A DNA stretch of 30,745 nucleotides from Minisyncoccota bacterium. Lineage in GTDB: Bacteria; Patescibacteriota; Minisyncoccia; Phycocordibacterales; GWA1-40-21. The notes under the pieces were generated by a model. That model was not told the origin of the DNA. It was given only the letters and a program-made list of their open reading frames with translations, and did not search any database. Both the position numbers and the translations under genes were made by a program. The stretch is taken from assembly GCA_041659365.1 (NCBI GenBank), contig JBAZYH010000013.1, positions 1 to 30,745 of the forward strand. Direction: 5' to 3'. Every line of letters starts with the position of its first letter. Positions within the stretch are counted from its first letter, which is position 1. Below, piece by piece: positions 25,063 through 27,267 of this stretch.

Positions 25063-25090
25063 TTGACAAATATTTTATACATGTTAGGAT
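25063..25090 (+). promoter_or_regulatory. Sigma-70-type promoter (TTGACA-16-TAGGAT)
   Basis: Hexamers read directly, upstream of the 25125 gene. Confidence 0.4.
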
Positions 25091-25124
25091 TTAAATAGAA
25101 TCAAAACCAGAAAGGTAGGACCTT

Positions 25125-25340
25125 ATGCCGCGTGCACTTAAAACAGACAAGTTTTTTCTTGGTGCCATTCAAAAAAGTGGACGAATGAAAGGAAAAAGAT
25201 TGTTAAGTTTCAATTATGCTTATAGTGGGGACACTAGCAAGATTAACCTACAAGACATGATTGATTTCCTTAAAGAGAAAGGAGTTGAACCTTCCTCCGT
25301 AGAAGTTCCAAGAAATTTCATCACTTCAACGAATGGGTAA
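25125..25340 (+). CDS. Hypothetical small protein (71 aa), GC-rich cargo
   Basis: Intact ORF between a promoter-like site and a terminator (25360-25389). Confidence 0.4.
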   Translation: MPRALKTDKFFLGAIQKSGRMKGKRLLSFNYAYSGDTSKINLQDMIDFLKEKGVEPSSVEVPRNFITSTNG

Positions 25341-25359
25341 CCATCCCCGCACTAGAAAG

Positions 25360-25389
25360 CCCCGCGCTTCTATACGGGGTTTTCTTTTA
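25360..25389 (+). terminator. Rho-independent terminator
   Basis: Stem CCCCG/CGGGG with a 10-nt loop, then TTTTCTTTT. Confidence 0.55.
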
Positions 25390-25422
25390 TCTAAAAATTC
25401 CCTATCTCCTTTTTTAAATAGC

Positions 25423-25451
25423 TTGATTTATTTTATATATCATGGTTATAT
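25423..25451 (+). promoter_or_regulatory. Sigma-70-type promoter (TTGATT-17-TTATAT)
   Basis: Hexamers read directly, upstream of the 25533 gene, which has an AAGGAGA Shine-Dalgarno. Confidence 0.4.
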
Positions 25452-25532
25452 AAATAATGGAAGTCCTTTTATATAACTTAGGATAATCACTGTGATTATT
25501 CGATAAGAGGATTCAAACAAAGGAGACAGATA

Positions 25533-26144
25533 ATGAAAGCCGACACAACAAAACTGGCTAGTTCATTCAAAGCGTGGCGCCTAACTTTAGGCACAGAACC
25601 CCACAACATCAAAAAAGCAATCAAACACTGTGAACAACTTGGCTTACTACCGAAGGTTTGTGGTTACCAAGAAGATATGATTTTATTTTCAATAACCCTG
25701 CCTTATGGAAAATTTTCTCATCCTCAGGCGTTTGTGAATCATCACATGGATTATCTCCATGCAGCAATTTTCCATGGAACGACAGTAGAATTAATTTGTC
25801 CTGTGGAAAAAAGTATGTGTGTTGAGGTGGGATTCCACCAAATTGACGCAGACATCAACTTTCCCACAGACCCTCAATTACTGAGGGAAGCTCTAACGGA
25901 TGATGAGGTTCTTGCACTTTGTGGTCTCATCGGTCGAAAAGAGTTAGAACGGATTGCATCTGTCACTCACGAACATGGACCTAATCCAGACTATGATGCT
26001 CTGGCAAAACAAGAAGGCAATGACCTTATTATTATAAGACAGGCAATCATTAAAATGACAGGAAAAAGTCATCCTTGGATTATAGGATTTGCTTCTGAGT
26101 TTGCAGGGTCCCTACTGTCAATGTATCCAACTTTCAAGAGTTAA
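25533..26144 (+). CDS. Hypothetical protein (203 aa), GC-rich cargo
   Basis: Strong Shine-Dalgarno AAGGAGA 9 nt upstream; terminator starts at the stop codon. No recognised family. Confidence 0.5.
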   Translation: MKADTTKLASSFKAWRLTLGTEPHNIKKAIKHCEQLGLLPKVCGYQEDMILFSITLPYGKFSHPQAFVNHHMDYLHAAIFHGTTVELICPVEKSMCVEVGFHQIDADINFPTDPQLLREALTDDEVLALCGLIGRKELERIASVTHEHGPNPDYDALAKQEGNDLIIIRQAIIKMTGKSHPWIIGFASEFAGSLLSMYPTFKS

Positions 26145-26182
26145 TTCACACCCCACGAAGGCTTCGTCATTCGTGGGGTTCC
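26144..26182 (+). terminator. Rho-independent terminator
   Basis: Stem CCCCACGAA/TTCGTGGGG, then TTCCTTTTTTAT. Confidence 0.7.
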
Positions 26183-26260
26183 TTTTTTATATTAAAGTTA
26201 AACTTCCCCACCTCCAATTTTATAATATTCCAGTTTAGAGTTCTGAACTTGTCCACAAGA

Positions 26261-26289
26261 CGGAGCAAATTTGACAAAACTGATTTGTA
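26261..26289 (+). promoter_or_regulatory. Near-consensus sigma-70 promoter with extended -10 (TTGACA-17-TGaTATAAT)
   Basis: Read directly. Preceded by GGAGCAAATTTGACAAA, a 17-nt exact copy of the junction at 21391-21410 (tRNA-Asn-end remnant + promoter). Confidence 0.6.
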
Positions 26290-26387
26290 TTGATATAATA
26301 GAAAACGAAAGTGGAATATAGTATTTCACTAGAAGTTCATTAACAAGTGGCTTGTCTCTACGGAGGCGCGTCACAAAGGAGGTTTGG

Positions 26388-27152
26388 ATGAGTGATTCAA
26401 CGAGAGAAGAAACGGTGTTCGGTAAGGATTTGGGGTTGGTTCATCAGGTAGTCTGTATTGGCCGAGAACAAGAAATCGGCGCCAACCGTGATTTCTGGAG
26501 TTACCTCGCATATGATCGTAAGATCTTCGCGGAGGTTGTTAAAATCGTCATGACCGCTCGTACTAACTGGCTCACTCTGAGTCAAGATGAGTTGAACGAA
26601 GTACAGAAGTGGGTCGCTCGTCTGGAGAACAATGATTGTCCCTATCCAGAGGATGAGACTTACTACACACGTAGCTCTCACTCCGAATATGACAACCGAA
26701 TCCATCACCTTCATCACGGTGGCAGATTCTCCGGTGGTGAGAAGGGTTTTTCAGAGATATTCCGGAAAGCCTCTCAGTCCAAGGATGTAGCTCGAGTGGC
26801 AATGTTGATTGAGGAGACGTTCGTCATCTCGTATCTGCTCTCCGGATTCTATTCGGCAGAGCAGGATCCAGAGGGGACGAATAAGAAATGGATGCACGGA
26901 CCGTTCAGTATCCTGACATACTTTGAGGATATCTGGGATGATGATCCGCGCGTTTCTACCGGTAGCTTCTTTGGGACTGCAGAATTGAAAGCAATTCCCG
27001 ATCTCAAGAAGATTCACGACATGTGCGATCGGAACGCTGATGATAAATCGGTAAAGCCGAAAGTCGGCAAGATTGTCGTTCAGCTCCGAACCATCAAGGC
27101 ACAAGTGATTACTTCTCTGAAACTGGAACTTACAAAGTTTGTCAAGGAATAA
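26388..27152 (+). CDS. Hypothetical protein (254 aa from ATG 26388), GC-rich cargo
   Basis: AAGGAGG Shine-Dalgarno 8 nt before ATG 26388; the ORF-track TTG start at 26352 is probably an over-extension. No family recognised. Confidence 0.5.
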   Translation: MSDSTREETVFGKDLGLVHQVVCIGREQEIGANRDFWSYLAYDRKIFAEVVKIVMTARTNWLTLSQDELNEVQKWVARLENNDCPYPEDETYYTRSSHSEYDNRIHHLHHGGRFSGGEKGFSEIFRKASQSKDVARVAMLIEETFVISYLLSGFYSAEQDPEGTNKKWMHGPFSILTYFEDIWDDDPRVSTGSFFGTAELKAIPDLKKIHDMCDRNADDKSVKPKVGKIVVQLRTIKAQVITSLKLELTKFVKE

Positions 27153-27172
27153 ACACCCTAGGCAGATAAATC

Positions 27173-27208
27173 AAAGCGCACGACCTTTAAGGTACGGCGC
27201 TTTTTAAA
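27173..27208 (+). terminator. Rho-independent terminator-like hairpin (GCGC...GCGC) + T-run
   Basis: Imperfect symmetric hairpin followed by CTTTTTAAATT. Confidence 0.45.
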
Positions 27209-27236
27209 TTATAATAATAATTTCCAGATTTTAAGA

Positions 27237-27267
27237 TTTCAAACAAGTTCTTACTTCATTCAACATG
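27237..27267. repeat. Repeat family copy B (core only): TTTCAAACAAGTTCTTACTTCATTCAACATG
   Basis: 31/31 identical to copy A core apart from the first base. Confidence 0.7.

Follow-up and report, generated by a model that had tools for sequence, protein, structure and literature searches.

In the tycheposons of Prochlorococcus, successive integrations push older elements inward and leave partial tRNAs and degraded elements behind, and a minority of these elements use large serine recombinases (bioRxiv 10.1101/2020.12.28.424599). Such tRNA islands (Islander-type and tycheposon) and the integrons, including the clusters of attC sites lacking integron-integrases (CALINs), are among the described systems with which we compared the locus reported here. 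It lies on contig JBAZYH010000013.1 of Candidatus Paceibacterota (candidate phyla radiation, CPR), which was analysed over its entire length of 30,745 nt and is hereafter called the window. Three genes, g1, g2 and g3, follow the gene of an MVP homologue on the same strand. The original prediction had regarded their products as candidates for cargo or accessory factors of a vault-like particle, should the MVP homologue assemble one, by analogy to TEP1 and vPARP, or alternatively the block as an independent cassette of the same array. We favour, with a probability of roughly 0.7, that g1-g3 are unrelated, autonomously transcribed single-gene modules, and that MVP, g1 together with g2, and g3 are separate cassettes in an island anchored at a tRNA-Asn gene.

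Like the tRNA islands, the island in the window has an intact tRNA at one end, an adjacent recombinase and fragments of the tRNA 3' end dispersed along it; the genome is streamlined, with variable cargo that is mostly unknown or related to defence. Unlike them, it has neither a tyrosine integrase nor a replication module, its units are very small with one or two genes each, and they carry the promoter inside the repeated junction; their mobility is something we infer. Some of the junction sites only resemble tRNA, their spacing exceeding that of a true tRNA 3' end by 5 nt. With integrons and CALINs the window shares mostly single-gene units of unknown function, a recurring site-like repeat and an adjacent recombinase, a likeness that is clearest in one comparison locus (L004, see below). 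The differences from integrons are that the recombinase is of the large serine type, with no IntI tyrosine recombinase with an attI site found in the window, that the repeats show no attC-like folding into imperfect hairpins, and that the cassettes have their own promoter and terminator, with mixed orientation at the right end of the window.

The three predicted open reading frames (ORFs) exist, and because each has homologues conserved at the protein level we regard g1-g3 as real genes (Table 1). Promoter-like matches in the window numbered 52 against approx. 30 expected, and since such strings are common in AT-rich DNA our promoter assignments rest on conservation at orthologous loci. A near-consensus sigma-70 promoter had been claimed for each gene. 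This was confirmed for g1 (10/12) and for g3 (12/12), the latter with both promoter boxes kept in the comparison loci L009, L002, L008 and L011, but not for g2, whose promoter is weaker than the other two and was not listed by the scan. Each gene has its own intrinsic terminator, as had been proposed; all three fold better than shuffled sequences and are followed by U-runs. The proteins remained as unrecognised as they were in the original prediction, as sequence-profile searches of Pfam, NCBIfam, PHROGs, PADLOC and PDB gave nothing significant for g1, g2 or g3, and fold searches with the models of g2 and g3 returned generic folds only.

Because copies of the tRNA 3' end, the 18-mer CGGAGCAAATTTGACAAA and the hairpin at 22127-22155 recur between units, the units are seen to be parted by mosaic junction modules. 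In these a site that is tRNA-derived or tRNA-like comes first, in many cases with a terminator hairpin after it, and a promoter comes last. The 3' end of tRNA-Asn is copied at 21383-21398 (16/16), just before the promoter of the u182 gene, and an 18-mer before the MVP unit (22107-22124) is identical to 21382-21399 in 17 of 18 positions. This relic upstream of MVP is followed by the hairpin at 22127-22155, which is 27/29 identical to that at 25006-25034 in the junction between the MVP and g1 units. The 16-nt copy before u182 continues into CGGAGCAAATTTGACAAA (21393-21410), which reaches the u182 promoter and recurs exactly at 26261-26278, where it forms part of the g3 promoter. Between g2 and g3, the tRNA-3'-end-like site at 26230-26278 overlaps the -35 box of g3; the inter-cassette repeat model from L004 matches window 26240-26271 (nhmmer E 1e-4), and the site is ~43/49 identical to L004 1787-1838 by hand count on the alignment. 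As this tRNA-like site parts g2 from g3, the block consists of at least two cassettes, g1 with g2 and then g3, so that of the alternative in the original prediction the independence from MVP stood and the single cassette did not. The delimitation of the block by copies A and B of the FKQ-type repeat was also borne out: the two are 90% identical across 40 nt, and no chance matches are expected.

Junction modules are present at homologues of g2 and g3 elsewhere. The comparison loci were few, and several of their contigs are shorter than 2 kb in total. In L004 the g2-like gene stands within a regular array (760-4420), in which six or more tiny genes (40-168 aa) each follow a repeated junction of ~90-200 nt. 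The junction runs from a tRNA-3'-like site through a spacer to a promoter, and some of the genes have near-identical terminators. At least five copies of AGGTTCGAAC-N13-CGGAGCA were found there, one before each small gene, the g2-like gene included. At the beginning of L005 a tRNA 3' end directly adjoins the promoter of the g2-like gene, which lies next to an AAA_18 kinase gene, and in L008 an intact tRNA-Asn lies ~145 nt upstream of the g3 homologue. On the 178-kb contig L002 (43% G+C) the g3 homologue adjoins a radical-SAM gene and has a junction module on either side; the two modules are 78% identical, and GGTTCGAAC-N13-CGGAGCC is found in the one upstream. The remaining g3 homologues are located on a short contig (L009), beside ftsH (L010), and, for the distant relative P0017, after a ribosomal operon amid Fic, methylase and integrase fragments (L011). 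Proteins that share just the N-terminal module of g3 are encoded amid unknown genes in L016 and L018, and one of these genes adjoins a Macro-domain gene. From the junction modules at the homologues in L004, L005, L008 and L002, the g2 and g3 families thus appear to move as single-gene cassettes tied to tRNA or tRNA-like sites, in genomes of 35-51% G+C. Scanning of the genome collection with MVP and of metagenomes with the g3 alignment yielded one locus each. Scans of viral contigs for MVP, g3, the junction repeat and the g3 leader gave nothing relevant; three matches to the junction pattern in viral contigs lay inside coding regions and were dismissed as chance.

For g1, the homologue P0012 is 69% identical at the protein level and is encoded in L007, where its neighbours are the gene of an ECF sigma factor on one side and yceG on the other. 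The complete unit, from promoter through terminator, is ~79% identical to that of L007, with promoter, 5' untranslated region (UTR) and terminator conserved. In the terminator the stem CCCCG/CGGGG is changed to CCTCG/CGAGG in L007, a compensatory change. An FKQ-like element precedes g1 in both places, and L007 has a G+C content of 27.5%. On this comparison g1 looks like a small basic protein of a unit native to low-GC Paceibacteria. No comparison locus holds more than one of g1, g2 and g3. Because their homologues never co-occur, their G+C at third codon positions (GC3) differs (0.32, 0.33 and 0.53) and the g1 unit stands elsewhere by itself in L007, we concluded that g1-g3 are independent of one another.

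For g2, the two homologues P0009 and P0010 are 48-69% identical to its N-terminal half, and the homology is confined to residues 1-98. The N-terminal ~90 residues form a predicted ferredoxin-like domain with the invariant residues C33, C43, H63, H71 and C89. The other half, towards the C terminus, is helical, and it varies among the three homologues. The structure model is poor overall (predicted local distance difference test, pLDDT, 52), and the N-terminal domain matched generic ferredoxin-like folds only. As a working guess from the model, g2 may consist of a conserved, Cys/His-bearing ferredoxin-like N-domain and an exchangeable C-terminal domain. Ahead of its g2-like gene, L004 retains both the g2 promoter and a UTR motif, GAAGTCCTTTTATA. 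A 17-nt palindrome in the 5' UTR of g2 looks like a putative operator.

Table 1. Features of the window, ordered by position.
Feature	Position	Strand	Remarks
tRNA-Asn (GTT), island anchor	5032-5106	+	
Large serine recombinase, 516 aa	5092-6642	-	Resolvase, Recombinase and Zn_ribbon_recom domains
Type II restriction-modification: AlwI-family endonuclease and two D12-class adenine methyltransferases	6572-10773	-	directly downstream of the recombinase
Host-like genes including xseA			after the restriction-modification genes
LOOT RNA (Rfam RF03000)	17320-17444	-	82 bits (gathering score 46); border of host-like DNA and SIR2-HerA segment
SIR2-HerA defence pair			then genes for a small membrane protein, u182 (182 aa), MVP homologue and g1-g3
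MVP homologue, 849 aa	22320-24869	+	MVP_shoulder, 2e-31; own promoter-terminator unit
FKQ-type repeat, copy A	24955-24994 (element to 25002)	+	junction module between MVP and g1 units
Hairpin after copy A	25006-25034	+	then GACTCGAACC at 25049-25058
g1 promoter, TTGACA-16-TAGGAT with TG	25063-25090	+	promoter scan; kept in L007 as TTGACA-17-TAGTAT
g1, 71-aa basic protein, no known domain	25125-25340	+	ORF list, homologue P0012
g1 intrinsic terminator	25354-25392	+	-16.3 kcal/mol, z -3.2, U-run after
g2 promoter, TTGATT-18-TATATA	25423-25452	+	read from sequence
Palindrome ATAATCACTGTGATTAT, 17 nt	25483-25499		g2 5' UTR, between promoter and ribosome-binding site
g2, 203-aa protein	25533-26144	+	homologues P0009, P0010
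g2 intrinsic terminator	26150-26189	+	-19.1 kcal/mol, z -6.0, U-run after
tRNA-3'-end-like junction site CCAGTTTAGAGTTCTGAACTTGTCCACAAGACGGAGCAAATTTGACAAA	26230-26278	+	between g2 and g3
g3 promoter, TTGACA-17-TATAAT with TG	26271-26299	+	promoter scan
g3 5' leader, structured, conserved	26306-26387	+	
g3 leader hairpin 1	26311-26329	+	
g3 leader hairpin 2, GUGGC-UU-GUCUC-UACG-GAGGC-GC-GUCAC	26347-26374	+	ends 1 nt before ribosome-binding site
g3 ribosome-binding site AAAGGAGG	26375-26382	+	ATG start
g3, 254-aa all-helical protein (model)	26388-27152	+	
g3 intrinsic terminator	27173-27208	+	-15.4 kcal/mol, z -3.2, U-run after
FKQ-type repeat, copy B	27228-27267 (element to 27275)	+	right limit of elevated-GC block
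FKQ-type repeat, copies C and D	27988 and 30274		

The G+C content is 0.41 across 17.9-27.2 kb against 0.29 in the rest of the window. Host genes have a GC of 0.25-0.31 and a GC3 of 0.16-0.25, and across the genes of elevated GC the GC3 is 0.27-0.53. The original prediction had g1-g3 share the elevated G+C of the MVP gene (GC 0.485, GC3 0.47). All three lie above the host genes, and g3 alone matches MVP (GC 0.47, GC3 0.53); g1 (GC 0.37, GC3 0.32) and g2 (GC 0.41, GC3 0.33) are intermediate, with GC3 closer to SIR2 and HerA than to MVP. Over window 24200-27395 an independent Logan assembly, the single 3.2-kb identical one found, agrees at 100% of positions, which shows that the block is no chimera. 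The two ends of the contig (1-127 and 30619-30745) form a perfect 127-nt inverted repeat. As this length is a common maximum k-mer length of assemblers, the repeat is probably an assembly artefact and not a biological terminal repeat.

The proposal that g1-g3 belong to the MVP particle, either packaged by the MVP shell or assisting its assembly as TEP1 and vPARP are associated with eukaryotic vaults, could draw on their position beside MVP on the same strand, on the G+C that g3 and MVP have in common, and on the ~50-aa module of g3 with its diverse C-termini (~300 clusters), which in principle could be a targeting domain. The co-occurrence that the original prediction called for was not observed. 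No MVP gene was found around homologues of g1-g3 or around proteins with the g3 module on nine independent contigs, searched up to 10 kb on each side of the homologue and, on several short contigs, within less than 2 kb in total; the loci without MVP are L007 for g1, L004 and L005 for g2, L002 and L008-L011 for g3, and L016 and L018 for the module only. Conversely, the closest orthologue of MVP, encoded in L006 and 64% identical, forms a promoter-terminator unit of its own, and g1-g3 were not found within 4.4 kb upstream or 1 kb downstream of it. Pfam detected no TROVE, NACHT, WD40, PARP or vWA domain in g1-g3. In addition, promoter and terminator belong to each gene individually, and MVP is set apart from every one of them by a junction site. 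Compared with the minor components of eukaryotic vaults (TEP1, vPARP/PARP4), g1-g3 are thus alike only in their proximity to an MVP-family gene, and unlike in sharing no domain, having no conserved linkage to MVP and forming separate transcription units. We therefore consider a role as vault cargo or accessory factors very improbable.

Within window 17936-24869 the SIR2-HerA system is located ~1.6 kb upstream of the MVP homologue, with tRNA relics between the units. SIR2-family defence proteins are NAD+-degrading effectors. This proximity to MVP may be coincidental. According to a 2026 preprint (10.64898/2026.05.01.722283), the NADase TEP1 and PARP4 are concentrated in human vaults close to an ADP-ribose pocket at the MVP shoulder.

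The favoured arrangement of separate cassettes in an island finds its anchor at the left side of the window, where an intact tRNA-Asn stands at the boundary with a site-specific recombinase adjacent. The large serine recombinase gene overlaps tRNA-Asn by 15 nt (5092-5106), and its last four codons, WLRR, together with the stop codon lie within the tRNA 3' end, so that WLRR is encoded by the acceptor-stem sequence of tRNA-Asn. A C-terminal fragment of such a recombinase (53% identity to that of the window) was found in L004, with WLRR likewise in a tRNA-like repeat (overlap at 794-848). Inside the island the tRNA 3' end recurs in part and in direct orientation (21383-21398, 22107-22124 and the related 26230-26278). 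The composition is atypical and the content variable: L002 shares the def-fmt-S30AE flank and differs beyond it. None of the scanned ORFs of the window has a Phage_integrase domain, and the serine-type recombinase is the sole recombinase. In the proposed mechanism the island would begin at the recombinase gene, which terminates within the 3' end of tRNA-Asn, and would grow by repeated insertions beside tRNA-Asn that are site-specific or guided by tRNA homology. MVP, g1 with g2, and g3 would have arrived as separate cassettes, moved by the recombinase or by recombination at tRNA homology in an order of events that we infer, and would be neighbours through accretion and not through function. The promoter of each junction would drive the gene that follows.

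Several points weigh against this proposal. The mobility of the cassettes is presumptive. With few comparison loci, several shorter than 2 kb, the absence of MVP nearby is compatible with a link in trans. Large serine recombinases usually need just a 2-bp identical core and leave no long direct repeats; partial-tRNA repeats are more typical of tyrosine integrases, none of which is present in the window. Between the recombinase and the high-GC block there are approx. 12 kb of low-GC DNA that is host-like and contains xseA, so the island is more than a single simple element. The FKQ repeats at the limits of the block are weakly alike to the tRNA-like sites (~59%), and copies of them also occur among host-like genes.

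The loci with a g3 homologue also permit another order of events, in which g3 is no cargo: ancestrally it would have been the next gene downstream of tRNA-Asn, an insertion of 21 kb would have parted the two later, and the site 26230-26278 would be the original tRNA end, now displaced. In L008 tRNA-Asn is directly followed by the g3 homologue. The def-fmt-S30AE genes, which precede tRNA-Asn in the window, are syntenic between window 1932-4097 and L002 5201-6962, in both cases followed by a variable region with a g3-family gene, and the g3 homologue of L002 lies ~3 kb past them. A tRNA or tRNA-like site is found upstream of the promoter in the window, in L002, in L008 and partially in L009. Against this history, the GC3 of g3 (0.53, compared with ~0.18 for the genome) argues for recent import, the g3 homologue of L002 is flanked on both sides by junction modules in a cassette-like manner, and that of L010 adjoins ftsH. 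We judge g3 as an ancestral neighbour to be unlikely.

A further-reaching possibility, which we put forward as tentative and somewhat doubtful, is an integron-like gene-capture platform in Patescibacteria. Here a large serine recombinase with its WLRR codons in a tRNA or tRNA-like site would be accompanied by promoter-bearing single-gene cassettes between sites that resemble pseudo-tRNA 3' ends, exchanged among distant genomes (28-51% GC). MVP, g1 with g2, and g3 would then be one array, and L004 and L002 others.

With regard to function, g1-g3 may, as a working guess, encode accessory, strain-variable functions, and from association only a role in defence or another accessory role is plausible. 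Specifically, g1-g3 could be single-gene immune or toxin-like modules of anti-phage defence or counter-defence, unrelated to MVP. The island holds an AlwI-type restriction-modification system and SIR2-HerA, the distant g3 relative P0017 is surrounded by Fic, methylase and integrase fragments, and a gene with the g3 module alone adjoins a Macro-domain gene. Immune proteins and polymorphic effectors commonly join a conserved N-terminal module to C-terminal domains that are exchanged, which we counted in favour of this role for g2 and g3. PADLOC gave strong matches for SIR2 and HerA, and none for g1-g3, u182 or MVP; PHROGs had no match for g1-g3 either. Other homologues of g1 and g3 are found amid housekeeping genes (FtsH, tRNA-Asn, a sigma factor with yceG), and the generic folds returned by the structure searches do not favour such a role. 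On balance a function of g1-g3 in defence appears improbable.

Six proteins are 47-65% identical to g3. The g3 gene has a structured 5' leader, which is present at every gene of the g3 clade, down to 33% protein identity (L009 130-228, L002 9909-10006, L008 416-514, L010 37-135 and L011 9907-10006). The analysis rests on six distinct sequences, in four of which hairpin 1 was detected. The leader has 93% of its cells paired, and sliding the partners brings this share to no more than 60%. Five pairs are changed on both sides (compensatory), a number reached by 6 of 500 shuffles. The covariance model of the leader matched upstream of g3-clade genes only and gave no match upstream of proteins that share merely the N-terminal module of g3. 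Rfam had no match to it at the gathering score or at E values up to 1 (24870-27400 searched). With no Rfam match, the g3 leader is a candidate for a new cis-regulatory RNA, and translation of g3 is probably controlled via the hairpin next to the ribosome-binding site. Possibly the g3 protein itself acts on the leader (autoregulation). The leader resembles ribosomal-protein-type leaders bound by their own gene product in that it has a conserved, compensated hairpin 1 nt from the ribosome-binding site and is restricted to genes of the g3 clade, like a gene-specific cis-regulatory leader. It differs from them in belonging to no Rfam family and in being known from six distinct sequences only.

The model of the g3 protein is confident and all-helical (pLDDT 80.6), and the fold search gave no informative structural neighbour. 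The protein starts with a module of ~50 aa (residues 1-58, 26388-26560) with the pattern FGKDLGLVH..GR.VGA..FW..LAHD..LF..VV, followed by a family-specific C-terminal domain. A HMMER search with g3 returned 298 cluster representatives. Of these ~30-40 are full-length relatives, and the remaining matches cover the first ~50 residues only, fused to unrelated, unannotated C-termini. Some proteins contain the module twice. When 106 proteins with the module were scanned with Pfam, isolated fusions were found, one to STAS and one to the C-terminal domain of RNA polymerase alpha, too few for a function to be assigned from them.

The FKQ repeat contains, on the minus strand of copies A-C (24962-24994, 27235-27267 and 27995-28027), a putative micro-ORF MLNEVRTCLK(A/S), in which the differences at Leu (TTA/TTG) and Lys (AAG/AAA) are synonymous; copy D has no ATG. 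The repeat was considered as an attC-like site or small RNA and rejected, as it folds no better than shuffled sequences except for the attached terminator hairpin and had no Rfam match. A tRNA origin of the repeat was not demonstrated, the ~59% given above being a hand count in register.

Upstream of SIR2-HerA the window contains a tandem duplication of ~165 nt (17528-17692 and 17710-17873, 85% identical), which holds short doublets, e.g. AAATACTAGC, AAATGTCAGT and TGTTAGCATT, that may be regulatory or iteron-like. Between SIR2-HerA and u182, inverted fragments of the T-arm and acceptor stem of tRNA-Asn were found on the minus strand (21140-21149, 21175-21187 and 21297-21308), together with a 17-nt direct repeat, TACGTGTAGGGATCGAA, at 21170-21186 and 21292-21308. 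These fragments and the repeat look like scars of rearrangement or integration.

For the bacterial vault-like particle, g1-g3 give no handle on its cargo. Instead, they offer a view into the flexible gene pool of a streamlined CPR genome, in which small self-promoted cassettes, defence systems and the MVP homologue among them, are stacked behind one tRNA beside a serine recombinase, and the junction sites are common to the window and unrelated metagenomic contigs. Two testable objects are defined by this work, the 5' leader of the g3 family and the ~50-aa N-terminal module of ~300 uncharacterised protein clusters. If the cassettes are mobile, they would represent a gene-capture mechanism distinct from integrons.

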